From an uncultured Archangiaceae bacterium (lineage in GTDB: Bacteria; Myxococcota; Myxococcia; Myxococcales; Myxococcaceae), in contig CBFGSI010000086.1 in assembly GCA_965651385.1 (NCBI GenBank), positions 1 to 32,237 of the forward strand: a DNA stretch of 32,237 bases, given 5' to 3'. The position numbers were made by a program, and so were the translations under genes. Numbering within the stretch: position 1 is the first letter of the stretch; each line of letters starts with the position of its first letter. Below, in pieces: positions 4,016 through 24,017 of the stretch. Below the pieces are notes generated by a model. The model searched no databases, was not told where the DNA came from, and saw only the letters and a program-made list of their open reading frames with translations.

Positions 4016-4051
4016 GCCCCCGGCGGGCCGACGGCCAGGCCGGCTCCCGCC

Positions 4052-4744: not shown

Positions 4745-4789
4745 CCGCCTCCCGGACTTCCACGAACCCTTTCGAGGACGAGAAAGCTC

Positions 4790-5164: not shown

Positions 5165-5193
5165 CGCCCCGTCCGAGACTTCGGAGACAGCAC

Positions 5194-5637
5194 ATGAAGG
5201 TCATTCTTCGAGAGGACATCGACGGCCTCGGCAAGTCCGGGGAGTTGGTCACCGTCAAGGACGGCTTCGGCCGCAACTACCTGCTGCCACGCAAGAAGGC
5301 GGTGCTGGCCAACGAGCAGAACATCCGCCAGTTGGAGCACGAGAAGGCGGTCATCTCCGCGCGCAACGCCAAGCTGAAGGGCGCCGCCGAGGAGCTGGCG
5401 AAGAAGGTGGGTTCGCTGCAGGTCACCATCAAGCGCAAGGTGGGCGAGCAGGACAAGCTGTTCGGCTCCGTCACGGCGCTGGACATCGCCGAGGCGCTGG
5501 CGGCCCAGGGCCAGCAGGTGGATCGGCGTGGCCTGCACCTGCCCGAGCCCATCAAGACGGTGGGGCAGCACGAGGTGGAGCTGCGGCTGCACCGCGAGGT
5601 GACGGCGAAGATCAAGGTCGAGGTCGTCCCCGAGTAG
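5194..5637 (+). CDS. rplI: 50S ribosomal protein L9
   Basis: MKVILREDIDGLGKSGELVTVKDGFGRNYLLPRKKAV... gives a full-length L9. Confidence 0.9.
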   Translation: MKVILREDIDGLGKSGELVTVKDGFGRNYLLPRKKAVLANEQNIRQLEHEKAVISARNAKLKGAAEELAKKVGSLQVTIKRKVGEQDKLFGSVTALDIAEALAAQGQQVDRRGLHLPEPIKTVGQHEVELRLHREVTAKIKVEVVPE

Positions 5638-5731
5638 TCCCCTACCCCGCATGACGCACAGGGCCGTCCGGGCGAGCGTCCGGGCGGCCCTCTTCTTTTG
5701 TCGGACCGGCAAGTACACTGTGCCTCGAGCC

Positions 5732-7850: not shown

Positions 7851-8614
7851 CGCCGGTAGTCGCGCGCCTTGTGGATGAAGATCTTGTAGAGGCCGCCGTG
7901 CACCGGGAGCGAGTTCAGCAGGTACTCCGGGTGCCACTGCACGCCCACCGCGAAGGCATGCGCGGAGGACTCAATGGCCTCGATGACGCCATCCGGTGAT
8001 ACGGCGCTCGTCAGCAACTGGTTGCCTGGCGTCTTCACCGCCTGGTGGTGCGTGGAGTTCACCATGAGCTGGCCCTTGCCCACCGCCTCGGACAGCAGCG
8101 AGCCCTCACGCACGTCCACCGGGTGTTGCGGCTGCGCCCGATCGTGCTTCTGCTCGTGCTCGCGGGCCTCGGGCATCTCGCGGCCGATGTCCTGGTACAG
8201 CGTGCCGCCCTGCACCACGTTGAGCAGTTGCATGCCTCCGCAGATGCCCAGCACCGGCATGTTGCGCTTGAGGGCCGCACGCATCAGCGCCGTCTCGAAG
8301 GCCGTTCGCCCCTCCTTCGTTACCCCCATGCCCTCTCGCGCCGTCTCGCCGTACGCCTGGGGCGGAATGTCGAAGGCTCCCCCGGTGATCACCACTCCGG
8401 AGACACGATCGAGATAGGCCTCTACGCAGGTGGGATCGTCCACATATGGCAGCACGAAGGGCAGCCCTCCGGCGCGAAGCACCGCCTCCGCGTACGTCAC
8501 CTTCAGCTCGTAGTGGGGGAACAGGACACTGGAGGTAGCCTCGGTCCAATCCGGAGTGATGGCGATGCTGGGCCGGCGCGGCGGCTGGCCGTGGTGTCTC
8601 AGAGGAGGTGTCAT
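7847..8614 (-). CDS. Class I glutamine amidotransferase-like protein, peptidase C26 / gamma-glutamyl-GABA hydrolase (PuuD) family
   Basis: GICGGMQLL (nucleophile elbow) and VGVQWHPEY (His) are C26/PuuD signatures. The ATG overlaps the thiE stop (ATGA), and its own stop overlaps the thiD GTG. It is embedded in a thiamine operon. Confidence 0.75.
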   Translation of the reverse strand: MTPPLRHHGQPPRRPSIAITPDWTEATSSVLFPHYELKVTYAEAVLRAGGLPFVLPYVDDPTCVEAYLDRVSGVVITGGAFDIPPQAYGETAREGMGVTKEGRTAFETALMRAALKRNMPVLGICGGMQLLNVVQGGTLYQDIGREMPEAREHEQKHDRAQPQHPVDVREGSLLSEAVGKGQLMVNSTHHQAVKTPGNQLLTSAVSPDGVIEAIESSAHAFAVGVQWHPEYLLNSLPVHGGLYKIFIHKARDYRR

Positions 8615-9288
8615 GGAGAGTGTGCGAGGCTAGCCCCCCGCTGGGCAGTATCAAAGGCGGCCCTCAGCCGCCGTACCTGCTCGGCAATGTCCTCGGCGAG
8701 CAGGGCATCGGAGACCACCGCGGCGCCGTGCGCCCCCGTGGCGGCCACCTGGGCGATGTTGGCCAGCCCCACCCCACCGATGCCCACCACCGGCAGCGGG
8801 CTCTCACGCACCACCGCGGCGAAGGCCTCGAGCCCGAGCACGGGAGCAGGCACTTGCTTCGTCCGGGTGCCAAAGACAGGCCCCAGCCCCACGTAGTCCG
8901 CCCCCGCCTCCTGGGCGGCCCTCGCACCCGCCGCATGACGCACGGTGACGCCCACCAGCCGCCCCGGTCCCAGCAGCTCGCGCGCCGCCGCCGGAGGCAG
9001 ATCCTCGTCTCCCACATGTACCCCGTCCGCCCCTGCCAGCAGCGCCAGATCGACCCGGTCGTTGAGCAGGCACACGGCGCCCACATGGCGGCAGGCGGCC
9101 ACCACCTCACGCGCGGCGGCCAGGGCCTCCCGGGGCGGCGTTCGCTTCATGCGCAGTTGGAGGATGCTCGCCCCACCGGCCAGCAGGTGCGCCGCCTTCT
9201 CTCCGAGCGGCAGCTCCGGGCGGACGGTATCGTCACAAAGGAGATAGAGCCCCCGGGGAAGGCCGGGGCGGGCAGGCGGCGTTGACAT
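8611..9288 (-). CDS. thiE: Thiamine-phosphate synthase ThiE
   Basis: LYLLCDD...ILQLRMK...VCLLNDRVDLALLAGADGVHVGDEDL...YVGLGPVFGTRTK...VVGIGGV are TMP-synthase motifs. Confidence 0.85.
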   Translation of the reverse strand: MSTPPARPGLPRGLYLLCDDTVRPELPLGEKAAHLLAGGASILQLRMKRTPPREALAAAREVVAACRHVGAVCLLNDRVDLALLAGADGVHVGDEDLPPAAARELLGPGRLVGVTVRHAAGARAAQEAGADYVGLGPVFGTRTKQVPAPVLGLEAFAAVVRESPLPVVGIGGVGLANIAQVAATGAHGAAVVSDALLAEDIAEQVRRLRAAFDTAQRGASLAHSP

Positions 9289-9347
9289 GCTGCACCTCTG
9301 CTATAAGGTGTCGCGCCCTTTTCACAAGAGATTCCGAGGATTTGACC

Positions 9348-9605
9348 ATGGCGGACACGCTGGACCCGAAGCACCTCGACAAGCGCACGGCCGAGCGCTA
9401 CCTGCGCACCGGCCAGCTCGATGAGAAGGCGTTCGAGCGCCACATCAAGAGCCTGCCGGATGTGAGCGAGAAGGCCGTCCCCGTAGAGACGCTCATGGAT
9501 GACGAGGGCTTCCTGGCCGACGAGGCTGAGGACGAGGAAGAGGAGGACCTCGATGAAGGTGAGGAGGAGGCGGCGGACGCAGCCGAGGATCCCCAGGCCC
9601 CATGA
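9348..9605 (+). CDS. Small acidic hypothetical protein (85 aa; Asp/Glu-rich C-terminal tail)
   Basis: The ATG is preceded by GAGGA. MADTLDPKHLDKRTAERYLRTGQLDEKAFERHIKSLPDVSEKAVPVETLMDDEGFLADEAEDEEEEDLDEGEEEAADAAEDPQAP. It overlaps the next gene by ATGA. Confidence 0.5.
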   Translation: MADTLDPKHLDKRTAERYLRTGQLDEKAFERHIKSLPDVSEKAVPVETLMDDEGFLADEAEDEEEEDLDEGEEEAADAAEDPQAP

Positions 9606-9913
9606 CGGACGAAAAGCGAGGCGAGACCTTCGTGATGCGGGGTGAGGCGCGCCCCGCGGGCCAGGACAGCCCCATCGCGTTCACGCCCTTCATCATCGGG
9701 CTGGCCTCTACCGCGCTCATCCACCTGGGGGAGACGGCCAACCCGGAGACGGGCCGCACCGAGCGCAACCTGGAGCTGGCCCGCGAGAGCCTCGACCTGC
9801 TGTCAATGCTGCGCGAGAAGACACGCGGCAACCTCACCGAGGAGGAGGATCGGCTCTTCAATACCCTCCTCACGGATTTGCGCCTGCGCTACGTCGAGGC
9901 GAGCAAGCGGTGA
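9602..9913 (+). CDS. DUF1844-like hypothetical protein
   Basis: 103 aa with FTPFIIGLASTALIHLGETANPETG...LELARESLDLLSMLREKTRGNLTEEEDRLFNTLLTDLRLRY, which resembles the DUF1844 family. It is translationally coupled on both sides (ATGA, GTGA). Confidence 0.55.
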   Translation: MTDEKRGETFVMRGEARPAGQDSPIAFTPFIIGLASTALIHLGETANPETGRTERNLELARESLDLLSMLREKTRGNLTEEEDRLFNTLLTDLRLRYVEASKR

Positions 9914-10548
9914 GCGAGCCCACCCCCCAGCCCTCTGGGCTGCCTCGCAACATCAGCGTGGCCGCAGTGCTGTGCCTCATCCTCTCCGGCATCACGGGTA
10001 TGGCCTCCGCCATGGAGGCCGCCAACCTGGCGCGCCTCTCCGAGCTTCAGGAGGAGCCCCCACCGCGCGCGGCCGTATTCGGGGATCCCGCCATCGTCGA
10101 GCGCGTCTTCAAGGCCCAGCTCGCCGCCCTGGAGCCCATGCGAGAGCCGCGCGCCCTCATCCTGGGCTCGCTGGCGGTGGCGTGCGCCCTGGCCTTCGTC
10201 GCCGCTGGTCGGCTGCTGCGCCCCGGGGGGCTGCCACGCGAGGGCATGCGCCGGCTGCTGGGCGGGGCCGCCATCTTCGCCGCGATCCTGCGTACCCTGG
10301 ACGGGGCTCAGTGGATGGTCGTCGTCAGGCGCGCCAGCGCCGTCATGGCCGAGGCCATGAGCGCGCTGCCCGAATTCCAGGAGGCCGCCACGCCCGAGCA
10401 GTTGAAGAGCACCGTGTCCTTCCTGCTCTCGGCGGCCACCGTGGCGCAGACGGCCTTCGTGGCTGGGGCCTTCGTCCTGCTCGGCCAGTACTTCCGCAGC
10501 GAGAGCGTCCGTCAGGCCGTCACTGCCCAGGACGGGCCCGCCGAGTAG
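9910..10548 (+). CDS. Hypothetical membrane protein (212 aa, about 4 TM segments)
   Basis: A GTG start overlaps the previous stop. Hydrophobic segments are AAVLCLILSGITGMA, ALILGSLAVACALAFVAAG, LLGGAAIFAAIL and FLLSAATVAQTAFVAGAFVLLG. GC3 is high. Confidence 0.5.
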   Translation: MSEPTPQPSGLPRNISVAAVLCLILSGITGMASAMEAANLARLSELQEEPPPRAAVFGDPAIVERVFKAQLAALEPMREPRALILGSLAVACALAFVAAGRLLRPGGLPREGMRRLLGGAAIFAAILRTLDGAQWMVVVRRASAVMAEAMSALPEFQEAATPEQLKSTVSFLLSAATVAQTAFVAGAFVLLGQYFRSESVRQAVTAQDGPAE

Positions 10549-10647
10549 CACCGCTGGGTCGATCCCGGGCCCCGGTAGCGGGCGCTCTCTCCCGCGCTCG
10601 CTGCTGGTGCCATGGCTCGGTGCCAGCTTCCGGCACAGGAGGAAGCA

Positions 10648-10967
10648 CCATGGCCACTGCCTCGACCCTGCGCTCGTCCGCCGTCCGTAACAAGACGATG
10701 TGGGCCTTCATCATCGGCTTCGCTATCGCCCTCGTGGCGCTCATCATCGGGCTGGCCCTTCCCTCGATCCCCTGGCTGGCGCTGGGTGGCTGGATCGCCA
10801 CCAGCCTCATCGTGCTGCTGGTCGATCGGGCGGTGGGAGAGAAGACGCCCCGCCCTGGCCACCCAGAGGAGAGTTTCGGCGCCATCTTCCATGCGAGCGG
10901 ACCCGCGCTGGGCATCATCGCCGCGCTGGCTGTGGGCGCCTTCTTGATCGCCCTGTTCGTCCGCTGA
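10648..10967 (+). CDS. Small membrane protein (106 aa, 3 TM helices)
   Basis: AGGAGG lies 7 nt upstream of the ATG. The sequence is MATASTLRSSAVRNKTMWAFIIGFAIALVALIIGLALPSIPWLALGGWIATSLIVLLVD...ALGIIAALAVGAFLIALFVR. It sits in the same frame as the long noisy track ORF 9642..10967. The competing 10612..10947 ORF is rejected. Confidence 0.5.
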
Positions 10968-10971
10968 GCCC

Positions 10972-11511
10972 TCAGGCCGCGTCCGGTGCGGCGCGCGAGA
11001 GCTGGGGGCTGGGCAACAGCGCCTCCAGGCGCTCCTCCGCGTCCAGGGCATCCAGCGGCAGCACCAGACTCGTGGAGGCGCGGGGCAGCGCCAGGAGCTG
11101 CTCCCGCGTCAGCCCGAAGACGTAGGCCAGATGCCCCAGCGGCCAGCGCGAGCGCATGCGCGTGAACGCCGCCTCGTCCATCTCCTCGGGCCGGCCTGGC
11201 AGTTCCACCTGGTCGTACACCACGTGCTCCCCGCCGACCCCATGCCCGTTGCCGTAGGCGAAGACGGCCTCGCCTTCGAGCGGATCGTAGACGTAGGCGT
11301 GCACCGTGGCGTTGGCGGCCCGAGACAGCAGGCGCGGCAGCGCATGGTGCTCGCCATACCATCGAGCGCCCTGGCGCCTCGAGGGAGAGAGCCCCTCATA
11401 CGCCAGTCGTACCACCTTGCGCCGCCGATGCACGGAGACGTGAAGTCCTGGCAGACGGCCAGCAGCCTCGTCGAGCGCCAGCGCTTCACGCGCCAGTCGG
11501 ACGAGCCCCAA
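10972..11511 (-). CDS. Hypothetical protein (about 179 aa), convergent with the upstream membrane-protein cluster
   Basis: Very high GC3 on the minus strand (e.g. YVYDPLEGEAVFAYGNGHGVGGEH uses GC-ending codons almost exclusively). No recognisable family. Start uncertain. Confidence 0.4.
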   Translation of the reverse strand: MGLVRLAREALALDEAAGRLPGLHVSVHRRRKVVRLAYEGLSPSRRQGARWYGEHHALPRLLSRAANATVHAYVYDPLEGEAVFAYGNGHGVGGEHVVYDQVELPGRPEEMDEAAFTRMRSRWPLGHLAYVFGLTREQLLALPRASTSLVLPLDALDAEERLEALLPSPQLSRAAPDAA

Positions 11512-11720
11512 CCCCAGGAATGATTCGAGCCGAACGAGGTAACCGCCGTGCGCTTCCAGAGTCCATCCCCCCGAGAAAGGCGCGCGGCGTATAGCTGGGC
11601 TCTCCTTTTATGGCAACCCTCCAAACCTGACAGACCTGCAATTACTAGCAGCTCGAAGTATTCCGCCCGTTTTGTACATGGCGTGCTTGCCAAGGGGGGC
11701 TGGGCTCTTACGTTGCGTGC

Positions 11721-14345
11721 ATGAGACTCGACAAGTTCACGGTGAAGGCGCAGGAGGCGATCCAGGAGGGCCAGTCGCTGGCTCGCCGGGCCGACAACCC
11801 CAACTACGAGCCAGAGCACCTGGCCGCGGCGCTGCTGGGTCAGAAGGACGGCATCGTGGAGCCGATCCTTCGGAAGATCGGAGCGGACACGAAGCTGTTC
11901 GCGGCGCGGCTGGGAGAGGCGCTGCAGAAGCTGCCGCGCATGCAGGGGGGCGAGAGCGCCATGCTCAGCCAACGCCTGCTGAAGACGTTCGACAAGGCCG
12001 AGGACGAGGCCAAGGGGCTCAAGGACGAGTTCGTCTCCTCCGAGCATCTGTTGCTGGCGCTGTGCCATGACAAGGGCGCGGTGGGCGAGGTGCTCAAATC
12101 CTCGGGCGTGACGCGCGATCGGGTGCTGTCGGGCATCAAGGACGTGCGCGGCTCGGCGCGCGTCACCAGCCAGGACGCGGAGGCCACCTACCGCGCGCTG
12201 GAGAAGTACGGCCGGGATCTGACGGAGTCGGCGCGCTCGGGCAAGCTGGATCCCGTCATTGGCCGGGACGAGGAGATCCGCCGCTGCGTCCAGGTGCTCA
12301 GCCGGCGCACGAAGAACAACCCGGTGCTCATCGGCGAGCCGGGCGTGGGCAAGACGGCGATCGCCGAGGGGCTGGCGCGGCGCATCGTAGATGGGGACGT
12401 GCCCGAGAGCCTGAAGAACAAGCGGCTCATCGCCCTGGATCTGGGGGCGATGGTGGCCGGCGCCAAGTATCGCGGCGAGTTCGAGGAGCGGCTCAAGGCG
12501 GTGCTCAAGGAGATCGCGGACTCGGCCGGCGAGGTCATCCTGTTCATCGACGAGATGCACACGCTCGTGGGCGCGGGCAAGGCCGAGGGGGCCATGGACG
12601 CGGGCAACATGCTCAAGCCGGCGCTGGCGCGCGGCGAGCTGCACTGCATCGGCGCGACGACGCTGGATGAGTACCGCAAGCACATCGAGAAGGACGCGGC
12701 GCTGGAGCGGCGCTTCCAGCCGGTGATGGTGGGCGAGCCCAGCGTGCACGACACGATCAGCATCCTGCGAGGCCTGAAGGAGCGCTACGAGGTGCACCAC
12801 GGCGTGCGCATCCAGGACAACGCCCTGGTGGCCGCGGCCACGCTCTCCCACCGCTACATCGCCGACCGGTTCCTGCCGGACAAGGCGATCGATCTGGTGG
12901 ATGAGGCCTCCAGCCGGCTGCGCATCGAGATCGACTCGATGCCCACCGAGATCGACGACGTGCGCCGGAAGATGACGCAGTTGGAGATCGAGCGCGAGGG
13001 GCTGAAGAAGGAGACGGATCCGCACTCGAAGGAGCGCCTGGGCCAGATCGAGAGGGAGCTGGCGGACCTCAGGGAGCGCTTCACCTCGCTCAAGGCGCAC
13101 TGGGACGCGGAGAAGGAGGCCATCACCGCCATCCGCTCGCTGAAGGAGAAGCTGGAGAAGGCGAAGAACGATCAGGCGGCGGCCGAGCGTCAGGGCGACC
13201 TGAACCGGGCGGCGGAGTTGAAGTTCGGCGTGCTCCCCTCGCTGGAGAAGGAGCTGGCGGGGCACAACGCGAAGCTGGCCGAGCTGCAGAAGAGCCAGAA
13301 GTTCCTCAAGGAGGAGGTGGACGCGGAGGACATCGCCCAGGTGGTGGCCAAGTGGACGGGCATCCCCGTGTCCAAGCTGATGGAGGGTGAGGTCCAGAAG
13401 CTGGTGAAGATGGAGGAGCGGCTGGCCGAGCGGGTGATCGGGCAGCGCAGCCCGATCGAGGCGGTGTCCAACGCGGTGCGCCGGGCGCGCAGCGGGTTGC
13501 AGGATCCGAACCGGCCCATCGGCTCGTTCATCTTCCTGGGCCCCACGGGCGTGGGCAAGACGGAGACGGCCAAGGCGCTGGCCGAGTTCCTGTTCGATGA
13601 CGACAGCGCGATGATCCGCATCGACATGTCGGAGTACATGGAGAAGCACTCGGTGGCGCGGCTGGTAGGCGCACCTCCGGGGTACGTGGGCTACGAGGAG
13701 GGCGGGCAGCTCACGGAGGCGGTGCGGCGGCGGCCGTACTCGGTGATCCTGTTCGACGAGATCGAGAAGGCGCACCACGACGTGTTCAACATCCTGCTGC
13801 AGATCCTGGACGAGGGCCGGCTGACAGACAGCCAGGGGCGCACGGTGGACTTCAAGAACACAGTGCTGATCCTCACGTCGAACATCGGCTCGCAGGCGCT
13901 GCAGGAGGGGATGGCCGGCAAGGAGACGCTGGACGAGGGCACGCGCAATGAGGTGATGGAGGCGCTGCGGGGACACTTCCGGCCGGAGTTCCTCAACCGG
14001 GTGGATGAGATCGTCCTGTTCGAGCCGCTGAAGAAGACGGAGATCCACCGGATCGTGGATCTGCAACTGAAGCGCCTGCAGAAGCTGCTGGCGGAGAAGC
14101 GGCTGACGCTGGAGCTGACGGACAAGGCGCGCAACCTCCTGGCGGAGCGCGGGTACGATCCGACGTACGGGGCTCGGCCATTGAAGCGGGCGATGCAGAA
14201 GTTCGTGATGGATCCGCTGGCGCTGAAGGTGCTGGGGGGCGAGTTCACGCCAGGGGACCACATCCAGGCGGACGCGACGGCGGAGGGGCTGACGTTCGGG
14301 AAGGTGCTGGTGGACAACTCGCGGTCAGAGAAGAAGTCAGCCTGA
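11721..14345 (+). CDS. clpB: Chaperone ClpB (Hsp100 disaggregase)
   Basis: 874 aa with two AAA+ modules (GEPGVGKT and GPTGVGKT Walker A) and a long M-domain coiled coil between them. The characteristic N-terminus is [23 protein letters not shown]. Confidence 0.95.
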
Positions 14346-15716
14346 CCCGGCCCCGGAATCCTTCGGGGCCGCCCCCTCTCCTCGCAGCTCCAGCCGGCTG
14401 CGGATGTACGCCAGGTGCAGGCGCAGGCTGTAGAACTCATCCATATAACTCAGCGGCACCTTCACGCCGCCCAGCTCATGCTCGAGCTGCTCGAGGAGCT
14501 CGAGATCCTGCCTCACCTGCTCGGAGGCAGGCGTGCCACGCAGGCGCTCGTCGATCTCGCGCAGCCGCGCATACCAGCGATAGATGCGCGAGCGGATGCT
14601 CCAGCGATACAGCGGCGGAGTGAGCCGCAGCAGCGGCAGGAGCACGACAAACAGAGGGATGAGCAGGATGATGAAGCGGTTGATGAGGGCGGCGAGCCAG
14701 AAGGGCAGGATACGCCGCAGGAAGTTGGGGCCGTGCGTGAGGTAGTACCGGGCCTGATCGCTGACGGGCAGCTCCGTGAGGCTGGCCTTGGGAAAGGTCC
14801 CTGGCTCGCTGAGCAGATCGCCGCTTCGGTGGACCTCCACGGCCGCCTCGGCCAGCAGCACGATCACGGCCGGGTGCAGGCCCTTGCGCGTCACCAGGAC
14901 CGCCGCGGGCGCGACCATCTGCACATCCTGCCGAGGCAGGTCTCGCGCCAGATCCAACGAGCCACGGTACAGGGTGACGGGCGACAGGTAGCGGAACCTG
15001 CGGGCATAGGCCTGGACCTGCTCGAGGCTCATGAGCCGCACGCCCGGCGTGGCCAGCAGGTCGACGAGGTCCGGGGCAGTGGGCGCCATGACGAAGATGG
15101 CCGCGTCGATCGAGCCCTCCCGCAGCGCCGCGGCAGCCTGGGCTCCTCCCAGATCCAGGAGCGCGGTGCCGTGCTCCTCACCGAGCGCGCCGCTGGCGTT
15201 CAGCAACTCCATGGCCAGGGCCCGCGCGCCGCTGCCCTCGGGGCCGATCGCGATGCGCCGCCCCCCGAGCTGTCCAAGCAGGCCCAGCTCCTGCTCTCCC
15301 CGGTAGAAGACCCACATGGGCTCCAGGTACAGGCTGGCCACCGCGGCCAGCGCCTTGCGCTGCTTCTCCTCCGTGGGCGCGGTGCCCCCTTGCACGATGG
15401 CGGCTTCGACCAGGGAGTCATCGGCCCCCAGCAGCGCATAGTTCTCGATGGAGCCAGCCGTCTCTCGAACGACGAGCTCGATCCCCGCCTCCCGGAAGTG
15501 CTCGGCGTACTGACGCGCCGCTGCGTGGTACGCGCCGCTCGCCGAGCCAGTGGCGATGACGATCCTCTCCGGAGGCGCCGGCTCGATGAACTGCCACGTC
15601 ACGGCCAGAGCCGCGGCCACCACGACGGCCACCACGGCGGCCAGGCGCCATCTCTCCAGGCGCGATGCCCATGAATGAGAATCCACTGCCACACAGGGTG
15701 CGGGGGGCTGACACAT
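14337..15716 (-). CDS. TAXI-family TRAP-type solute-binding protein fused to a C-terminal transmembrane/coiled region (orphan, no DctQM nearby)
   Basis: [47 protein letters not shown] matches the TAXI (COG2358-like) periplasmic binding fold. The C-terminal ~120 aa carry hydrophobic helices ([28 protein letters not shown]) and a charged helical tail. The N-terminus has a TM/signal-anchor ([19 protein letters not shown]). Its 3' end overlaps the clpB 3' end by 9 nt. Start uncertain. Confidence 0.65.
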
Positions 15717-15781: not shown

Positions 15782-16201
15782 TCAGGGGACGAGCCGCAGG
15801 AGCTGCTCCACCTGCTCCCGCACCTCGCCCAGGAGTAACGGATCACTCACCGCGATGAACACCGTGTCATCCCCGGCGATGGTGCCAGCGACTCCGCTCA
15901 AGTGCGGCGCGCGATCCACCATCACCCCCACGATGGACGCGTAGCCAGGTGCCGTCTTGAGCACCAGCATGTTGGGCGGAGCCTCCACCACCTTCACGCC
16001 CCGGGCCTCGGGCGCCATGGGCTCGACGCGCTGGTAGCGCCCCCCCACCTTCTGGATCGACAGGCGCTTGAGGTGCCGCGAGAGCGTGGACTGGCTCGGC
16101 GCATGGCCCTCGGCTTCCAGCAGCCGCTGGAGCGCCGCCTGATCGCTGATCTCTTGTGCCTCCAGCAACCGGAGGATCGCTTCGTCCAGCCCCATGGCCA
16201 T
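15782..16201 (-). CDS. argR: Arginine repressor ArgR
   Basis: LDEAILRLLEAQEISDQAALQRLLEAEGHAPSQSTLSRHLKRLSIQKV (winged-helix DNA-binding domain, AhrC/ArgR-like) plus a C-terminal arginine-binding oligomerisation domain (GTIAGDDTVFIAV...). Candidate starts are ATG 16201/16195 (MAMGLDE...) or an upstream TTG (16237) or ATG (16213). The 5' end lies inside the ARG-box cluster. Confidence 0.85.
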   Translation of the reverse strand: MAMGLDEAILRLLEAQEISDQAALQRLLEAEGHAPSQSTLSRHLKRLSIQKVGGRYQRVEPMAPEARGVKVVEAPPNMLVLKTAPGYASIVGVMVDRAPHLSGVAGTIAGDDTVFIAVSDPLLLGEVREQVEQLLRLVP

Positions 16202-16211
16202 GCCCGGAACC

Positions 16212-16356
16212 ATGCATGCGCCTGCATATGCATGCAAGCGGACCGTGAAAAATCCCGCGGGAAATCACGGAAATTTTGAGTATTGCGCTGCGCGTCGAAA
16301 TGCATATTATGCGCCCCCTCTCCGGGAGCACTGCATATTCATGCATGAATATGCAT
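16212..16356. promoter_or_regulatory. Cluster of ARG-box-like AT-rich palindromes in the argR / arg-operon divergent control region
   Basis: Three TGCAT/ATGCA-based palindromic sites sit in an otherwise 70% GC context: ATGCATGCGCCTGCATATGCATGCA (about 16212-16236), ATGCATATTATGC (about 16300-16312), and a perfect 24-bp palindrome TGCATATTCATGCATGAATATGCA (16332-16355) containing ATTCA..TGAAT half-sites. They lie about 35 bp upstream of the argF' start and overlap the argR 5' end. Confidence 0.6.
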
Positions 16357-16391
16357 CCGCGACCGGGCCTCCGCACCGAGAGGAACGCACC

Positions 16392-17396
16392 ATGAGGCAT
16401 CTCACCCACATCCAGGATCTGGGCCCCGCAGGCGTGGAGGAGATCCTCACGCGGGCGGTGACGTGGAAGCGCCAGTCCCCCGGCGCCGTGTTCCAGGGCC
16501 GGCTGCTGGGCATGGTCTTCTTCAACCCCAGCCTGCGTACGCGCACGTCCTTCGAGGCGGTCATGCTGCGGGCGGGTGGGCACGCCATCGTCCTGGACGT
16601 GGGCAACGGCGTGTGGAAGCTGGAGGATCGCCCCGGCGCGGTGATGAACGGGGATCGGGCTGAGCACATCCAGGAGGCGGCGCCGGTGCTCTCGCGCTTC
16701 GTGGACATGCTGGGGGTGCGCACTTTCTCGGCGGGTGGAGGCGACGAGCAGGACGAGAGCGATCCGGTCATCAACGCCTTTCGCCGGCACGTGACGGTGC
16801 CGCTGGTGAGCATGGAGTCGGCGCGGGAGCACCCGTGCCAGGGGCTGGCGGACGTGCTCACGCTGCGGGAGTCGTTCGGGGACACGCGGCGGCTGCCCGT
16901 GACGCTGACATGGGCGCCGCACATCAAGCCGCTACCGAAGGCGGTGCCCAACTCGTTCCTGCTCACCGCGGCGGCGGCGGGCTGCGAGGTGCGGGTGGCG
17001 CACCCTCCGGGCTTCGAACTGCACCCGCAGGTGCGCGCCGAGGCGGAGGCCTATGCCAAGGCCACCGGCGGCAGCATCACGTACACGCACCAGCAGGACG
17101 AGGCGCTGGCGGGCAGCCGCGCCGTGTATGCGAAGGCCTGGGGCCCGGCCACCCGCGGCGGGTATGCGCCGGGGGATGTGGCGGCGCTGATGGGCTCGTA
17201 CGCGGGCTGGATGCCCACTCGGCGCGCCATGGCCCGCGCGGCCAAGGACGCCATCTTCCTGCATTGCCTGCCGGTGCGCCGCAACGTCGAGGTCGCCGAC
17301 GACGTGCTGGATCACCCCTCCAGCCGAGTCATCAACGAGGCGGAGAACCGCTTCCACGTCCAGCGCTCGCTGATCCACTGGCTCCTGGCCGCCTGA
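16392..17396 (+). CDS. argF': Carbamoyltransferase of the OTCase/ATCase fold, probably N-acetylornithine (ArgF') rather than canonical ornithine carbamoyltransferase
   Basis: 334 aa. The carbamoyl-phosphate motif is FFNPSLRTRTSFE (SxRTR), and HCLPVRR is near the C-terminus. The OTC-specific DxxxSMG ornithine loop is absent. GAGAGGA lies upstream of the ATG. It is the first gene of the arg operon, directly downstream of the ARG boxes. Confidence 0.75.
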   Translation: MRHLTHIQDLGPAGVEEILTRAVTWKRQSPGAVFQGRLLGMVFFNPSLRTRTSFEAVMLRAGGHAIVLDVGNGVWKLEDRPGAVMNGDRAEHIQEAAPVLSRFVDMLGVRTFSAGGGDEQDESDPVINAFRRHVTVPLVSMESAREHPCQGLADVLTLRESFGDTRRLPVTLTWAPHIKPLPKAVPNSFLLTAAAAGCEVRVAHPPGFELHPQVRAEAEAYAKATGGSITYTHQQDEALAGSRAVYAKAWGPATRGGYAPGDVAALMGSYAGWMPTRRAMARAAKDAIFLHCLPVRRNVEVADDVLDHPSSRVINEAENRFHVQRSLIHWLLAA

Positions 17397-17412: not shown

Positions 17413-18264
17413 GTGCCCTTCTCTCCCGATCCCTATGCGGCGCTGCGCTCCGCGGCGCGCTACGTCCGGCAGTTCCGCCGGAAGACGTTCGTGGTGCTCC
17501 TCGACGGGCCCGTGCTCGGAGAGGCCCGGCTGCGACGCGCGGTGTGCGAGCAGCTCGCCCTGCTGTGGACGTTCTCTATCCAGCCCGTGGTGGTGCACGG
17601 CGCGGGCCCGGAGGTGGACTCCCCCTTCGACGCCCTGTCGGGCCGGCTGCGCATGGACCTGCTGGCAGACCTGCAGGCCGCGGGCGTTCCCTGCGTAAGC
17701 CTGAGCGGCGTGGACGCGGGGTTGCTCAAGGGCCGGCGACGCTCCAGCGACGCGGCGGCGGAGCCTGGCGCCGAGAGCGGCCGGCCGGGAGGCTATGGCC
17801 TGATCGGTGACATCGAGTCCGTGGATACGCGGCTGCTGCAGCACCTGCGTACCGGGGACTATGTGCCGGTGGTGGCTCCGCTCGCGGGCGATCCCTCGGG
17901 CGCTGTCTACAACGCGAGTGCGGACACGGTGGCCGCGACGCTGGCGGCGGCGCTTGGCGCCGAAAAGCTCTTCTTCCTGCTGCCAACGCCCGGCCTGCTC
18001 CGGGAGCCGACGGAGCCCACCTCGCTCATTCCCCAGGCCACGCTCGTGGATCTGGCGGCGCTGGAGCAGGAGGGCCGGCTGCTCGGCTCGCTCCAATCCA
18101 AGGCCCACGCCATCCGCCACGCCTTGGTGAACGGGGTGGGCAGCGTGCACCTGGTGAGCGGCGTGCTGCCCAACGCCTTGCTGGAGGAGGTCTTCACCAA
18201 CGAGGGCAGCGGCACCATGGTGCTGAGGGAGGCTCCCGCGCGGAGCCCGGGAGGGGAATCATGA
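17413..18264 (+). CDS. argB: Amino-acid kinase family, acetylglutamate kinase ArgB
   Basis: GTG start. VVVHGAGPEV and NASADTVAATLAAALGAEKLFFL are typical NAGK segments. The N-terminal glycine-rich motif is divergent (FVVLLDG instead of VIKxGG). The stop overlaps the next gene (ATGA). Confidence 0.75.
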   Translation: MPFSPDPYAALRSAARYVRQFRRKTFVVLLDGPVLGEARLRRAVCEQLALLWTFSIQPVVVHGAGPEVDSPFDALSGRLRMDLLADLQAAGVPCVSLSGVDAGLLKGRRRSSDAAAEPGAESGRPGGYGLIGDIESVDTRLLQHLRTGDYVPVVAPLAGDPSGAVYNASADTVAATLAAALGAEKLFFLLPTPGLLREPTEPTSLIPQATLVDLAALEQEGRLLGSLQSKAHAIRHALVNGVGSVHLVSGVLPNALLEEVFTNEGSGTMVLREAPARSPGGES

Positions 18265-19328
18265 CGCCTGCTGCCCTGCTCGAGGCCCTCGTGGCCACGC
18301 CCAGCGTCTCTGGCCATGAGGAGCGTCTGGCCGATCAGGTCGCCGCCTGGGCCGAAGGCTGGGGCGCACGCGTCCACCGCCAGGGCCACAACGTGTGGTT
18401 CTCGGTGGGCCGCGGCTCGCGGCGCATGCTCGTCAACTCGCACCTGGACACGGTGCAGCCGTGCGCTGGGTGGACACTGGAGCCGCACCAGCCGGTGTGG
18501 CGCGAGGGGCGGCTGTACGGGCTGGGCAGCAATGACGCCAAGGGCTGCGTGGCGTCGATGCTGCTGGCCGCGCGCGCGCTGCTGGAGAACCCCAGCGCCC
18601 TGGAGGGGCGGGGCGAGGTCGTCTTCGCCTTCACCGCCGAGGAGGAGACGGGCGGTGCCGGGCTGGGCACGGTGCTGCCGGTGCTCGGGCCCCTGGACGC
18701 GGCCGTGGTGGGTGAGCCCACGGGGCTGAAGCCGTGCACCGCCCAGCGAGGGCTGCTGCTGCTGCGCTGCGTGGCCCATGGCCGCTCGGCGCATGTGGCG
18801 CACGCGGAGTCCGCCGAGGCCGAGAACGCCATCCACGTGGCGGCGCGGGACATCTCCCTGCTGTCCGAGCTGCGCTTCCCCCCACACCCGCTGCTGGGCG
18901 AGGCGCGGGCGCAGGTGACGCAGATCCAGGGCGGGCTGGCGCGCAACCAGGTGCCGGATCGATGCGAGTTCTTCGTGGATCTGCGCACCACGCCGGGGAT
19001 GAACCACAAGGCGGTGGCCGCGCAGCTCGCCAGCGCATTGCGCAGCGAGGTGCTGGTGCACTCCGAGCGCTACCTGCCCAAGGCCACGCCGGAGAGCGAG
19101 CCCATCGTCCGCGCGGCGGTGGCCGCCTCGGGCCTGGCGCCCGTGGGCTCGAGCACCGCGTCCGACTGGGCCTTCCTGAGCGATGTGCCCACGGTGAAGG
19201 TGGGACCTGGCGACACGCTGCGCTCGCACCGGGCCGATGAGTACCTCTCGCTGGTGGAGTTGGAGGCGGGGGTGACGTTCTACCAGCGGCTCATCCATGG
19301 CTACTTCGAGGAGGTGGCCCGTGGCTGA
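18261..19328 (+). CDS. argE: M20-family deacylase (ArgE/DapE-like), probably acetylornithine/acetylcitrulline deacetylase
   Basis: LVATPSVSGHEERLADQV...NSHLDTVQP...GSNDAKGCVASMLLAA...FTAEEETGG are M20 metal-binding and catalytic motifs. Its position in the arg operon sets the functional assignment. Confidence 0.8.
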   Translation: MTPAALLEALVATPSVSGHEERLADQVAAWAEGWGARVHRQGHNVWFSVGRGSRRMLVNSHLDTVQPCAGWTLEPHQPVWREGRLYGLGSNDAKGCVASMLLAARALLENPSALEGRGEVVFAFTAEEETGGAGLGTVLPVLGPLDAAVVGEPTGLKPCTAQRGLLLLRCVAHGRSAHVAHAESAEAENAIHVAARDISLLSELRFPPHPLLGEARAQVTQIQGGLARNQVPDRCEFFVDLRTTPGMNHKAVAAQLASALRSEVLVHSERYLPKATPESEPIVRAAVAASGLAPVGSSTASDWAFLSDVPTVKVGPGDTLRSHRADEYLSLVELEAGVTFYQRLIHGYFEEVARG

Positions 19329-20673
19329 GAGCGTGCTCTGGTCCAAGGGGCTGCCGCTGGACGAGGCCATCCACCGCTTCACGGTGGGGGATGATCCGGT
19401 GGTGGACCTGGCGCTGGTGCCGCATGACGCGCTCGGCAGCGCGGCGCACGCGCGGATGCTGGCCCGCGTGGGGCTGCTGCCCGAGGCGGACATGCGGGCG
19501 CTGGTGGCCGCCCTGCGCGCGCTCCAGGAGGAGGCTCGGGCGGGGAGCTTCACCATCCGCCCCGAGCAGGAGGACGGGCACACCGCGCTGGAGGCGGCGC
19601 TGGTGACGCGCGTGGGCGAGCCCGGGCGGCGCATCCACCTGGGCCGCTCTCGTAACGACCAGGTGCAGCTCTCGATGCGGCTGTGGCTGCGCGATCAGGC
19701 GCTGGGGCTGGGCGCTCGCGCGGCGGAGCTGGCTGGCGTCTTCCTGGACTTTGCCCAGGCGCACGCGGACGCGCCGATGCCGGGCTACACGCACCTGCGG
19801 CGCGCCATGCCGAGCACCTTCGGGCTGTGGGGCCTCGCCTTCGCCGAGGGGCTGCTGGAGGAGTTGGAGGCGCTGCGCGGCCTGTGGGCCCGGCTGGATC
19901 GCTGCCCGCTGGGCGCCGCGGCTGGCTTCGGCGTGCCGCTGCCCATCGATCGCGAGTACGTGGCGAGCCTGCTCGGCTTCTCGCGCGTGCAGCGCAGCCC
20001 CATCGACGTGCAGAACAGCCGGGGCCGGCACGAGGCGGCGGCGCTGGGGTGGGCGTGCTCGGTGGCGGGCGGCCTGGAGAAGTGGCTGTGGGACGTGGCC
20101 CTCTTCAGCACCGAGGAGTTCGGCTTCCTGGCGCTGCCGGATGCCTTCACCACCGGATCGTCCATCATGCCGCAGAAGAAGAACCCGGACGTGGTGGAGC
20201 TGGCACGCGCGCGCTGCCGGGAGCTGCGCGGCCAGGCCCGGCAGGTGGAGGAGATCGCCAGCGGGCTGCCCTCCAGCTACCACCGCGACTTCCAGCTCCT
20301 CAAGCGCCCCACCCTGGCCGCGGTGGGCTCGCTGCGGGAGCTGCTGGAGGTGCTCACGCGCCTGGTGCCCGCGCTCCAGGTCCGCGCCGAGGCCGCAGCC
20401 CGCGCCTGCGATGACACGTTGTACGCGGCGCACCAGGCCTACGTGCTGGCCGGGCGGGGCCTGCCCTTCCGAGACGCCTACCGCGAGGTGGCGCGCCAGC
20501 TCGGCGACGGCACCTTTCAGCCGGATCGCGCCGCGCTGACGGCCACGCACCTGGGCGGCGCCGGCAACCTGGGCCTGGAGCAGGCTCGCGCCGAGCTGGC
20601 CACCGCCCGCGCCTGGCTCACCGATACCCACGGCGCGCTCGCCACCTGCGCCGAGCGCGTCTGGCAACCCTGA
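19297..20673 (+). CDS. argH: Argininosuccinate lyase
   Basis: 458 aa. GRSRNDQV and the fumarase/ASL signature region (GSSIMPQKKNPD) are present. An alternative GTG start at 19321 would give an 8-nt overlap with argE instead of 32 nt. Confidence 0.95.
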   Translation: MATSRRWPVAESVLWSKGLPLDEAIHRFTVGDDPVVDLALVPHDALGSAAHARMLARVGLLPEADMRALVAALRALQEEARAGSFTIRPEQEDGHTALEAALVTRVGEPGRRIHLGRSRNDQVQLSMRLWLRDQALGLGARAAELAGVFLDFAQAHADAPMPGYTHLRRAMPSTFGLWGLAFAEGLLEELEALRGLWARLDRCPLGAAAGFGVPLPIDREYVASLLGFSRVQRSPIDVQNSRGRHEAAALGWACSVAGGLEKWLWDVALFSTEEFGFLALPDAFTTGSSIMPQKKNPDVVELARARCRELRGQARQVEEIASGLPSSYHRDFQLLKRPTLAAVGSLRELLEVLTRLVPALQVRAEAAARACDDTLYAAHQAYVLAGRGLPFRDAYREVARQLGDGTFQPDRAALTATHLGGAGNLGLEQARAELATARAWLTDTHGALATCAERVWQP

Positions 20674-20701: not shown

Positions 20702-21892
20702 ATGAGCAAGAAACCCGTGGTGCTGGCCTTCTCCGGCGGCTTGGACACCTCCTTCTGCGTGGTCTACCTGCGCGAGCAGGGCCATGCGGTCACCACCGTC
20801 ACCGTGGACACCGGGGGCTTCCCGGCGGACGCGCTGGCGCGCATGGCCGAGCACTCGGCCCGTCTGGGCGCGGTGGCCCACCACACGGTGGATGCGCGCG
20901 CGCTGCTCTTCGAGGACTACCTGCGCCACCTGCTCGCGGGCAACGTGCTGCGCGGCCAGGCCTACCCGCTGAGCGTGTCCGCCGAGCGCGTGTGCCAGGC
21001 CTCCGAGGTGGTGCGGGTGGCGCGTGAGGTGGGCGCCCAGGCGCTGGCCCACGGCTCCACGGGCGCGGGCAATGATCAGGTGCGCTTCGACGTGGCCTTC
21101 CGCGCGCTGGCGCCGCACCTGGAGCTGATCACTCCCATTCGTGAGCTGGGGCTCAGCCGGGCGCAGGAGATGTCCTTCCTGGCCGAGCGCGGCTTCCACC
21201 TGCCGGCGAAGACGGGGGCCTACTCCGTCAACGAGGGCATGTGGGGCACCAGCGTGGGAGGCCAGGAGACGCACGACTCGTGGAGCGCGCTGCCCGAGGC
21301 GGCCTACCCCGGCGGCCAGGTGCCCTCGGATCTGAAGCCGCGCACGCTGGTGCTGAGCTTCGAGCGTGGGCGTCCGGTGGCGCTGGATGGGAAGGCCCTG
21401 TCACCCGTGGAGCTCATCTCCGAGCTGAACGCGCTGGGCCAGCCCTACGGCGTGGGGCGCGGCATCCACCTGGGAGACACGATCCTGGGCATCAAGGGCC
21501 GCGTGGGCTTCGAGGCGCCTGCGGCGATCATGCTCATCACCGCGCACCGGGAGCTGGAGAAGCTGGTGCTCTCGGGCAAGCAGCTCTTCTGGAAGGAGAC
21601 GCTGGGCAACCTCTACGGCACGCTGCTGCACGAGGGGCACTTCTTCGATCCGCTGGCGCGGGACGTGGAGGCGTACCTGACTTCCTCGCAGGAGCGGGTG
21701 ACGGGCGAGGCGCGGCTGACGCTGTACCCGCACGCGGTGGCGGTGGAGGGGGTACGCTCGCCGCACTCGCTCATGGATGCGAAGGTGGCCAGCTACGGCG
21801 AGGCCAACCACCTGTGGACCGGAGCGGAGGCCGCGGGGTTCGCCAAGGTGTACGGCGTGGCGCAGACGCTGGCGCTCCAGGTGAAGCCATGA
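20702..21892 (+). CDS. argG: Argininosuccinate synthase
   Basis: MSKKPVVLAFSGGLDTS (PP-loop), then AHGSTGAGNDQVRFD and further full-length matches. 396 aa. Confidence 0.95.
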   Translation: MSKKPVVLAFSGGLDTSFCVVYLREQGHAVTTVTVDTGGFPADALARMAEHSARLGAVAHHTVDARALLFEDYLRHLLAGNVLRGQAYPLSVSAERVCQASEVVRVAREVGAQALAHGSTGAGNDQVRFDVAFRALAPHLELITPIRELGLSRAQEMSFLAERGFHLPAKTGAYSVNEGMWGTSVGGQETHDSWSALPEAAYPGGQVPSDLKPRTLVLSFERGRPVALDGKALSPVELISELNALGQPYGVGRGIHLGDTILGIKGRVGFEAPAAIMLITAHRELEKLVLSGKQLFWKETLGNLYGTLLHEGHFFDPLARDVEAYLTSSQERVTGEARLTLYPHAVAVEGVRSPHSLMDAKVASYGEANHLWTGAEAAGFAKVYGVAQTLALQVKP

Positions 21893-22950
21893 AAGTGCAC
21901 GTGGACAAGGTCGGCAGCGTCACCCGCAACCTGCGGCTGGGGCGCACGGTGCACCTCACCTCCGAGATCCAGGCCATGGAGGGCGCCGTGCTCGCGGCGC
22001 GGATTCATGGGGAGAAGTCCAGCTACAACGAGCTCGAGGACGAGCACGGGCGGCTGGTGAAGCTGCACGACGGCGACATCATCGTGGGGGCGCTGGGCCA
22101 CCGCAACGCGCTGCATGGATACGAGGGCGTGGTGCCGGAGCGGGTGGTGGAGGGGCAGCGGCTGCACGTGCTCAACATGGGCGGGGTGATCGGCCAGTGC
22201 ACCTCGCACAACCCGGGGGTAGGCACACCCTTCGAGGCGGAGGTGCTGGGCCAGGTGCTGATGTTCCCCGACTTCCAGTCGCGCGAGGGGCAGCCGGCCC
22301 ACATCCGGGCCGGAGCGCTGAAGGGCTCGGCCGGGCCGGTGGGCATTCCCGTGGTGTACGTGGTGGGCACGTGCATGAACGCGGGGAAGACGTACGCCTC
22401 GTGCGCGCTGGTGCGGCGGTTGATGCAGGCTGGCTACCGGGTGGGCGGGGCGAAGCTCACGGGCGTGTCGCTCATGCGGGACACGCTGAGCATGCGGGAC
22501 TCGGGCGCGGAGGTGGTCATGGACTTCACGGATGCGGGCACGGTGTGCACGAGCCCGAAGTCCGCGGCGTGGGTGACGCGCATCATCCTGTCCGAGCTGG
22601 CTGCCTCCGAGGTGGACGTGATCGTCGCGGAGACAGGGGATGGGATCATGGGCGAGTACGGCGTGCAGGCGATCCTCGGGGATCCGGCGCTGCGCGAGCT
22701 GGGGGCGGCGTGGGTGCTGTGCGCGAATGATCCCGTGGGGGCCTCGGGCGGGGTGCGCCACCTGCGCGAGGCCTATGGCATCCAGGCGGACGTGGTGTCC
22801 GGGCCGGCGACGGACAATCGGGTGGGCATCCGCTTCGTGGAGCGTGAGGTGGGGTTGCCCGCTCACAACGCCCGGGCGGACGCCGCGGGCCTGGGTGGGT
22901 TGATTCTCGAGAAGATCGCGCCGCAGCTCGCGGGGAGGAAGAGCGCATGA
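21889..22950 (+). CDS. Conserved hypothetical protein (353 aa) embedded in the arg operon, with a P-loop-like GTCMNAGKT motif, possibly DUF1611-like
   Basis: The ATG overlaps the argG stop (ATGA) and its own stop overlaps the argC ATG (ATGA). GC3 is high. The N-terminal ~130 aa are followed by VVYVVGTCMNAGKTYASCALVRRLMQAGYRVGGAKLTG and a Rossmann-like remainder. There is no GNAT, aminotransferase or ArgJ signature. The track's 569-aa ORF (21241..22950) is this gene fused to an out-of-frame read-through of argG. Confidence 0.6.
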   Translation: MKVHVDKVGSVTRNLRLGRTVHLTSEIQAMEGAVLAARIHGEKSSYNELEDEHGRLVKLHDGDIIVGALGHRNALHGYEGVVPERVVEGQRLHVLNMGGVIGQCTSHNPGVGTPFEAEVLGQVLMFPDFQSREGQPAHIRAGALKGSAGPVGIPVVYVVGTCMNAGKTYASCALVRRLMQAGYRVGGAKLTGVSLMRDTLSMRDSGAEVVMDFTDAGTVCTSPKSAAWVTRIILSELAASEVDVIVAETGDGIMGEYGVQAILGDPALRELGAAWVLCANDPVGASGGVRHLREAYGIQADVVSGPATDNRVGIRFVEREVGLPAHNARADAAGLGGLILEKIAPQLAGRKSA

Positions 22951-24017
22951 CACGGGTTCACGCTTACGTGCTGGGGGCTGCTGGCTTCGGCGGGGGTGAG
23001 CTACTCCGGTTGCTGTCCGGGCACCCCTCGGTGGCCGCCGTGCGCGCGGTGTCCCGTCCCCACGCGGACATGCCCCTCTACAAGGTGCACCCGCACCTGC
23101 GCGGGCTCATGGAAGGGCGCTTCGACGCGGAGCCAGACTGGCGGTGGCTGACGGACTCGCCGCAGCCGGTGGTCTTCTCCGTGCTGGAGGAAGAGGAGCT
23201 GGCCCGGCAGCTCCCCGCGCTGGAGAAGCAGTGGGCGGAGCTGAAGCTCAATGAGCGGCTCGTGCTGGTGGACCTTTCCCCGGACTTCCGGCTGGAGCAC
23301 CCGGGGCGCTACGCGGCGACGCATGGCCGACCCCACCCGGCGCCGGAGCTGCTCGAGCGCTTCGTGTACGGGCTTCCCGAGTGGCGGCGTGAGAAGCTCA
23401 AGGGGGCCCGGCGCATCGCCAACCCGGGCTGCTTCGCCACGGCCGTGCAACTGGGGCTGTTGCCAGTAGCCTCGACGCCGGGCCTGGGGCTGATCGCGGC
23501 GACGGCGATGACGGGATCGTCCGGCTCGGGGGCGTTGCCGGGCGAGGTCACCCACCACCCCACCCGCGCGCATGACTTCCGCGCGTACCGGGCGCTGGAG
23601 CACCCGCAGGAGGCGGAGATGGATGTGATGCTGGTGGCGCACAAGGCCTCGCGCCACAGGCTCACCTTCGTGCCGCACTCAGCGCCTCTCGTGCGAGGGA
23701 TCTTCGCCACGGTGCAGTTCGAGTGGCCGGAGAACGCCGGGGGCGTGAGCACCGAGTCCCTGAGCGCGATCTTCCGGCGCTACTATGAAGGCTCCCCGCT
23801 CGTGCGGGTGGTGGAGGGGACTCCGCGGCTGGCCTCGGTCGTGGGCAGCAACTTCTGCGACATCGCCGTGGCCACTCGGGGGCGCACGGTCGCGGTGATG
23901 GTGGCCCTGGACAACCTGGTCAAGGGCATGGCCGGGCAGGCCGTGCAGAACATGAACGTGGCGCTCGGCCTGCCCGAGGACACCGCCCTGCGACAGGCGG
24001 CCTGCTACCCCTGCTGA
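22947..24017 (+). CDS. argC: N-acetyl-gamma-glutamyl-phosphate reductase
   Basis: VLGAAGFGGGELLRLL (NAD(P)-binding), RIANPGCFATAVQLGLLP (active-site Cys) and a C-terminal dimerisation domain. 356 aa. Confidence 0.9.
   Translation: MTRVHAYVLGAAGFGGGELLRLLSGHPSVAAVRAVSRPHADMPLYKVHPHLRGLMEGRFDAEPDWRWLTDSPQPVVFSVLEEEELARQLPALEKQWAELKLNERLVLVDLSPDFRLEHPGRYAATHGRPHPAPELLERFVYGLPEWRREKLKGARRIANPGCFATAVQLGLLPVASTPGLGLIAATAMTGSSGSGALPGEVTHHPTRAHDFRAYRALEHPQEAEMDVMLVAHKASRHRLTFVPHSAPLVRGIFATVQFEWPENAGGVSTESLSAIFRRYYEGSPLVRVVEGTPRLASVVGSNFCDIAVATRGRTVAVMVALDNLVKGMAGQAVQNMNVALGLPEDTALRQAACYPC

Follow-up and report, generated by a model that had tools for sequence, protein, structure and literature searches.

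What does a conserved gene of no assigned pathway step do in the middle of a bacterial arginine operon? The question is raised by a stretch of 32,237 nucleotides from an uncultured Archangiaceae bacterium (GenBank assembly GCA_965651385.1, contig CBFGSI010000086.1), the whole of which is referred to here as the window, where an operon of the order argF'-argB-argE'-argH-argG-X-argC, divergent from the repressor gene argR, includes a gene, X, for a 353-residue protein. The answer favoured here is that X is an N-acyl-L-glutamate synthase, catalysing the first committed step of arginine biosynthesis and most probably making N-succinyl-L-glutamate, in organisms that are without the GNAT-type ArgA. 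An initial annotation of the window had regarded X as co-expressed with the arginine enzymes and as a positional candidate for glutamate N-acylation, and this proposal is strengthened by gene context across phyla, by relatives at about 30% identity, by a fusion to a kinase domain and by a C-terminal domain resembling that of DUF1611/DgcN.

Judged from its overlapping start and stop codons, X is a real gene that is expressed within the arg operon. Its reading frame translates into 353 residues without an internal stop, and its guanine plus cytosine (GC) content by codon position (0.71/0.47/0.93 at positions 1/2/3) matches that of the six flanking arg genes. An antisense open reading frame (ORF) at 21793..22953 was set aside as spurious because its codon-position GC pattern is the inverse of that of X and the arg genes. 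The tight coupling that had been described for the operon, with X locked between argG and argC, is likewise evident in the sequence, where an ATGA overlap joins X to each of its neighbours and the other junctions are short gaps or overlaps.

21889..22950, plus strand: gene X, encoding a 353-residue two-domain protein, a predicted N-acyl (succinyl)-L-glutamate synthase (from the ORF and its translation, an AlphaFold2 model and homologues)
21889-21892, plus strand: ATGA overlap of the argG stop and the X start, read from the sequence as gccATGAaa
22947-22950, plus strand: ATGA overlap of the X stop and the argC start, read from the sequence as gcgcATGAca

Homologues of X, of which more than 4880 were scored, occur in Myxococcota, Holophagae/Acidobacteriota, Verrucomicrobiota and Gammaproteobacteria and are 60-89% identical to it (75-89% within the Myxococcaceae; 60-69% in Holophagaceae/Geothrix of the Acidobacteriota, in Chthoniobacterales of the Verrucomicrobiota and in Gammaproteobacteria), a level of conservation across phyla that typifies enzymes of core metabolism. 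When 1.84 billion cluster representatives were searched with a profile, E was below 1e-30 for 271 clusters and below 1e-10 for 1150. Genomic context was examined at 83 loci, comprising 80 species-representative genomes and three Holophaga contigs, from Myxococcota, Acidobacteriota, Verrucomicrobiota, Gammaproteobacteria and Bdellovibrionota-like metagenome-assembled genomes; the 80 genome loci had the highest scores among 581 or more and are not a random sample, for which reason distant representatives of X were also inspected. The gene upstream of X is argG at 78 of the 83 loci and argB at three, and argC lies downstream at 79, the remaining loci ending before the neighbour is reached. The linkage of X homologues to arg genes across genomes, raised in the initial annotation, therefore holds (argG or argB upstream at 81/83). 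The commonest order, at 46 of the 83 loci, is argF'-argB-argE-argH-argG-X-argC, with the M20 deacylase retained. Clusters in Holophaga run argR | argD-argF'-argB-argE-argH-argG-X-argC, and those of Gammaproteobacteria (at least 13 loci) run argR | argD-argF'-argB-argH-argG-X-argC, without argE; the gammaproteobacterial-type clusters lacking both an argE-type deacylase and any other unassigned gene are L022, L031, L036, L037, L040, L042, L045, L053, L056, L065, L069-L071 and L076. In none of the complete clusters does any gene other than X lack an assigned step, and glutamate N-acylation is the sole step that is never represented. An alternative in which X stands in for ArgD proves unnecessary, as related clusters hold a separate class-III aminotransferase argD beside X; the assignment was rejected on this ground and because X is without a pyridoxal phosphate fold (no Aminotran_3 match).

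The association persists in divergent members of the family. Four distant relatives, including some at 29-31% identity, likewise lie in arg clusters: P0198 (31% identity to X) in the order argG-argF-X-argC; P0221 (29%) in carA-carB-argG-argF'-X-argC-argB-[AstE/AspA::ArgH]-argD; P0192 in argG-X-argF; and P0238 in argF-X. In P0190 (626 residues), an X-like domain of 39% identity is fused to an amino-acid-kinase domain of the ArgB/N-acetylglutamate synthase (NAGS) type, which ties X to both of the initial steps of the pathway, as classical ArgA and the bifunctional NAGS/K are tied. Four contigs, drawn from three or more metagenome samples, carry this fusion (e.g. L084:8001-9881, L085 and L086); it is encoded there by a gene standing alone, which diverges from one for arginase. 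An apparent X::ArgC fusion, P0189, was discounted as an assembly or frameshift artefact because adjacent arg genes of the same contig are also called as fusions; on this metagenome contig (L087:6309-13676), ArgR+ArgG, X+ArgC and ornithine carbamoyltransferase+ArgB all appear joined, most likely through assembly indel errors. Two records bear titles at odds with their contents, L013 ('Comamonas sp. KCTC 72670') having a Myxococcus-like arg cluster (78% identity) and L056 ('Bacillota bacterium MAG97') a gammaproteobacterial-type one, which suggests that these assemblies are mislabelled or contaminated.

The protein itself has a recognisable C-terminal half. Its match to DUF1611_C in Pfam (PF07755) is below threshold (E=8.5e-4; 19.2 bits against a cut-off of 25; residues 145-187 only), in agreement with the earlier description of X as 'possibly DUF1611-like', and further sub-threshold matches in Pfam and NCBIfam, to MobB and BioD, are weak. 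The names given to close homologues are 'DUF1611 domain-containing protein' or 'D-glutamate N-acetyltransferase-like', and two of these homologues (P0006 and P0008) carry a precomputed PF07755 match; given these names, and a preprint (considered below) in which an apparently identical family is already predicted to supply the missing ArgA, to call X 'unannotatable' was too strong. Signatures of ArgA, ArgJ and ArgD had been reported as absent from X, and the profile searches concur: no GNAT-family match was obtained in Pfam or NCBIfam at E<=0.01, and neither an ArgJ (PF01960) match nor an amino-acid-kinase domain in the same databases. Among PDB sequences, BioD was the sole solved protein found with X (E=4e-3) or with the profile of its family, in each case at a marginal E-value. 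X aligns with residues 5-55 of BioD, such that K167/T168 of X correspond to K15/T16, K189 to K37, and the P-loop of X to GTDTEVGKT. This loop is the GTCMNAGKT motif already noticed in the initial annotation, and it is located at residues 160-168 (nucleotides 22366-22392). An AlphaFold2 model, built with 23 homologues in the alignment (mean predicted local distance difference test score, pLDDT, of 87), divides X into two domains.

21889..22323, plus strand: N-terminal domain of X, residues 1 to about 145, all-beta in the model; putative dicarboxylate substrate-binding domain
22351..22947, plus strand: C-terminal alpha/beta P-loop domain of X, about residues 155-353, BioD-like/DUF1611_C-like in the model
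22366..22392, plus strand: Walker-A-like loop G160-T-C-M-N-A-G-K167-T168, from the sequence, with the BioD-type spacing GxxxxxGKT

The C-terminal half had been called Rossmann-like; in the model it is a P-loop domain of the BioD type and not a classical Rossmann fold. Foldseek searches with the model, less discriminating in their result, placed HypB, FtsY and BioD first, with MeaB also among the top matches and 2obn at E=3e-5, and the C-domain is structurally akin to DUF1611/DgcN, with a remote similarity to the structure of DgcN (PDB 7XRJ). DgcN is the D-glutamate N-acetyltransferase of the DUF1611 family and uses acetyl-CoA in a catabolic context, whereas L-glutamate and a succinyl donor are predicted for X, in a biosynthetic arg operon. 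X is 13-14% identical to the DgcN/DUF1611 structures 7XRJ, 2G0T and 2OBN and shares with DUF1611 the fold of the C-terminal P-loop domain, but has an all-beta N-domain in place of theirs, for which no PDB counterpart was found with the model. As modelled, X has the C-domain of DUF1611/DgcN and not its N-domain, and no DUF1611-type N-terminal domain was detected in X by Pfam. X is thus a conserved and co-translated component of the arg operon that carries a phosphate-binding P-loop domain like those of BioD and DUF1611 together with a charge-rich beta domain peculiar to it.

The pattern of conservation was followed in a wide alignment of 72 sequences, comprising X and 71 relatives at 29-57% identity. 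Residues conserved in at least 95% of these are R72, P83, G99, G102, G166, K167, T168, K189, G192, D198, G206, A207, G217 and G305, and those conserved in 85-95% are E50, D215, E248 (94%) and D281. The N-domain of X is rich in invariant charged residues, namely D6, K7, R13, K43, E50, D51, R55, H60, D63, R72, E79, E118 and R132. X carries the BioD-like pattern of a GTxxxxGKT P-loop, a downstream Lys and an acidic residue proposed as a Mg ligand, and its E248 may be the counterpart of E115 in BioD. Three cysteines, C162, C220 and C278, are invariant in the core clade of X but are not kept in the wide alignment, and a catalytic or metal-binding role for them was ruled out because they vary in the wider family.

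By analogy with DgcN/DUF1611, the P-loop of the C-domain would bind the nucleotide diphosphate of succinyl-CoA through K167/T168, K189 and E248, while invariant Arg, Lys and His residues of the beta-rich N-domain would place L-glutamate and the succinyl carboxylate, and the alpha-amino group of glutamate would attack the thioester. The product, N-succinyl-L-glutamate, would then feed ArgB, ArgC, ArgD, a succinyl-type ArgF' and a deacylase. The same analogy makes succinyl-CoA the probable acyl donor of X, and the donor may be either succinyl-CoA or ATP plus succinate; we infer the reaction, the donor and the residue roles alike.

That the acyl group is succinyl rather than acetyl is suggested by ArgF'. 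The initial annotation had assumed an N-acetylated route, which does not agree with the residue found at the specificity position of this enzyme, as set by alignment to the N-acetylornithine carbamoyltransferase (AOTCase) of Xanthomonas campestris and its PDB variants E92A, E92S and E92V. The wild-type motif of the X. campestris enzyme is GDTEEHI and that of the window ArgF' is GDRAEHI, with Ala90 at the Glu92 position. Replacement of Glu92 of AOTCase by A, P, S or V switches its substrate to N-succinylornithine (Shi et al. 2007, via bioRxiv 10.1101/2024.10.14.618325). The succinylated route is probable because ArgF' has Ala and not Glu at this acetyl/succinyl specificity position. Among 63 ArgF' proteins linked to X, the position is occupied by A in 43, P in 15, T in three, S in one and Q in one, with Glu in none, and in three distant X clusters it is P, I and P. 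One distant locus (L092:10869-13076, plus strand) encodes ArgH fused to an N-terminal domain of the AstE/AspA family (succinylglutamate desuccinylase/aspartoacylase), which is a candidate N-succinylcitrulline desuccinylase in place of the M20 ArgE and points the same way. Despite the NCBIfam label 'N-acetylornithine carbamoyltransferase', the operon most likely runs via N-succinylated intermediates.

The proposal that X is this synthase has a precedent: an identical prediction has been published for a family that is almost certainly the one to which X belongs. The GapMind 2026 preprint (bioRxiv 10.1101/2024.10.14.618325, Appendix 2) predicted the Steroidobacter protein ACG33_RS14135, UniProt entry A0A127FCT3, to be the missing ArgA, making N-succinylglutamate, and described it as a 'very distant homolog' of DgcN by a Foldseek match to 7XRJ. 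Its homologues were reported to lie nearly always in arg operons (with argB, argC, argD, argF', argG, argH and argR) and never to share a genome with ArgA homologues; A, P, S or V, or more rarely I or T, occupies position 92 in 90-97% of the linked ArgF' proteins, two exceptions having Gln, and Steroidobacter is without ArgE as well (bioRxiv 10.1101/2024.10.14.618325). The two families share the arg-operon context, the remote likeness to 7XRJ, the spectrum of ArgF' residues including the rare Gln, and gammaproteobacterial clusters without argE, and X is almost certainly a further, myxococcaceal member of the ACG33_RS14135 family, its cluster containing an M20 argE' unlike that of Steroidobacter. 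A literature search found no further paper on the X family.

Several points weigh against the favoured reading of X. The N-domain of DUF1611 proteins is Rossmann-like, and that of X differs. Searches of PDB sequences with X or with its family profile did not find 2g0t, 2obn or 7xrj, no NCBIfam DgcN match was obtained, and the Pfam DUF1611_C match is below the gathering score. In addition, membership of X in the ACG33_RS14135 family, almost certain as it is, is drawn from a match of descriptions and from gammaproteobacterial homologues at 60-67% identity, and the preprint itself grades the function as predicted (bioRxiv 10.1101/2024.10.14.618325).

Compared with the classical routes to N-acetylglutamate (ArgA, the bifunctional NAGS/K, short NAGS, ArgH(A) and ArgJ), the reaction predicted for X, N-acylation of L-glutamate, is the same, and linkage to argB/argC is shared with the X family. 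ArgA combines amino-acid-kinase and GNAT domains, and the P0190 fusion of X to a kinase echoes this kinase-plus-transferase architecture. X differs in being without GNAT, amino-acid-kinase and ArgJ domains and in its probable product, which is succinylated and not acetylated. As its fold is unrelated to those of classical NAGS, X would be a non-homologous replacement.

The best-surviving alternative keeps X at the same step with another chemistry, namely as an ATP-dependent ligase of succinate (or acetate) and L-glutamate, in which the P-loop would serve to phosphorylate the carboxylate and the resulting acyl-phosphate would be attacked by the glutamate amino group. In enzymes of the BioD fold (BioD, CTP synthase, cobyrinate amidases and formyl-tetrahydrofolate synthetase), ATP phosphorylates a carboxylate or carbonyl oxygen before attack by an amine. 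The residues of BioD that handle the ATP phosphates are matched in X by K167/T168 and K189, each among the most strictly conserved positions of the wide alignment, and E248 lies in an 'AETGDG' motif that resembles the 'EGAGG' of BioD. However, these P-loop and acidic motifs are present in DUF1611 proteins as well, and for that reason the conservation of the motifs cannot separate the two chemistries. BioD and the synthetase domain of CTP synthase, which are ATP-dependent, are without the N-terminal beta domain of X and do not occur in arg operons. A ligase of this kind is judged unlikely. It would be a new ATP-dependent amide ligase, built from the BioD fold and a new beta domain and making N-succinylglutamate from succinate, glutamate and ATP, and in a variant of the proposal X would take over from ArgA and from ArgE alike in the clusters of Gammaproteobacteria; in this fuller form, too, the proposal is a tentative one.

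A more doubtful suggestion is that X is an accessory nucleotide-binding protein, such as a SIMIBI-type metallochaperone for ArgE' or a factor that assembles or regulates the arg enzymes. M20 enzymes of the ArgE type require Zn or Co, and HypB, FtsY and MeaB, among the top Foldseek matches, are metallochaperone or targeting NTPases. Such a role is disfavoured because X persists in at least 13 gammaproteobacterial clusters without argE and has no conserved metal-binding Cys motif, C162, C220 and C278 varying in the wider family. The NKxD-type GTPase specificity motif is also absent, the large, charged and highly conserved N-domain resembles a substrate-binding domain, and the ArgA gap would stay unfilled; the suggestion is thus an improbable one.

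A role as an ArgJ-like transacylase or deacylase, in which glutamate receives its succinyl group from N-succinylcitrulline or N-succinylornithine, would cover both the missing ArgA and the missing gammaproteobacterial ArgE, and it gains some appeal from the clusters that are without argA and argE and have X as the sole extra gene, as from Steroidobacter, which also is without ArgE (bioRxiv 10.1101/2024.10.14.618325). It is nonetheless very improbable, because X co-occurs with dedicated deacylases (of the M20 type in 46 of the 83 clusters and of the AstE type in one) and possesses a P-loop whose invariant Lys and Thr have no evident use in cofactor-free transacylation; such a cycle would, moreover, still require an anaplerotic synthase. 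That X, whose activity is so far predicted, is merely carried in the operon for a function unrelated to arginine is scarcely credible given a gene order held across at least four phyla and even at about 30% identity, an ArgB-type domain joined to X in one lineage, and start and stop codons that overlap with arg genes.

The synthase reading of X is set within an operon whose remaining genes were identified by Pfam and NCBIfam profiles.

15782..16237, minus strand: argR, arginine repressor (Pfam Arg_repressor and Arg_repressor_C), divergent from the operon
16392..17396, plus strand: argF', N-acylornithine carbamoyltransferase with Ala90 (DRAEHI) at the specificity position (NF003384, 432 bits); predicted succinyl-specific
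17413..18264, plus strand: argB, N-acylglutamate kinase (Pfam/NCBIfam), with the amino-acid-kinase domain alone and no GNAT domain
18261..19328, plus strand: argE', M20-family deacylase, presumed N-acylcitrulline deacylase; below every NCBIfam ArgE/DapE cut-off
19321..20673, plus strand: argH, argininosuccinate lyase; GTG start at 19321 with a GAGGAGG Shine-Dalgarno sequence, alternative ATG start at 19297
20702..21892, plus strand: argG, argininosuccinate synthase (Pfam/NCBIfam)
22947..24017, plus strand: argC (TIGR01850, 292 bits)

The divergent placement of argR recurs in Holophaga and Gammaproteobacteria. Alignment sets the likely true start of argF' at ATG 16392 and not at 16194, the first start of its ORF, which as called mechanically begins 66 codons too early and runs into the start region of argR; the intergenic stretch between the two genes, 16238..16391, is the expected site of promoters and ARG boxes. 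The junctions upstream of argG comprise a 16-nucleotide gap (argF'/argB), an ATGA overlap (argB/argE'), an overlap of argE' and argH that spans eight nucleotides (GTGGCTGA) with the GTG 19321 start and 32 with ATG 19297, and a 28-nucleotide gap (argH/argG). The argE' product is below cut-off for all ArgE, DapE and LysK models, its best NCBIfam score being 142 bits against a cut-off of 412, and it is about as similar to acetylornithine deacetylases as to succinyl-diaminopimelate desuccinylases. Convergent with argC, and overlapping its 3' end by 13 nucleotides, is an ORF of 948 codons on the minus strand (24005..26851) that encodes a bacterial homologue of the eukaryotic Major Vault Protein, with strong domain matches (Pfam MVP_shoulder, 4e-45, with Vault_2, Vault, Vault_3 and Vault_4). 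The region upstream of the operon (1568..15716) is of housekeeping character, with prs, the gene for ribosomal protein L25, pth, dnaB, a Peptidase_C26 glutamine amidotransferase, clpB and an NMT1-like binding protein. The GC content of the window is 68.8%, and its nearest relatives are Myxococcaceae of the Hyalangium/Stigmatella type.

Many Myxococcota, Holophagae/Acidobacteriota and Verrucomicrobiota and some Gammaproteobacteria appear to be without a recognisable first enzyme of arginine biosynthesis. If X is the N-acylglutamate synthase proposed here, it would take the place of the GNAT-type ArgA without being homologous to it, and a recurrent gap would be closed in the metabolic reconstruction and auxotrophy prediction of lineages that are abundant in soil and freshwater. 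The labels 'N-acetylornithine carbamoyltransferase' and 'acetylornithine deacetylase' in operons that contain X should then probably read succinyl, and the poorly understood DUF1611/DgcN-like group would extend from D-glutamate catabolism into core biosynthesis. Should X instead be a ligase, or replace ArgE as well as ArgA, arginine synthesis in several phyla would start with enzymology unprecedented for the pathway. The main interest of X lies in its donor substrate, its mechanism and the role of an N-terminal domain without structural precedent.

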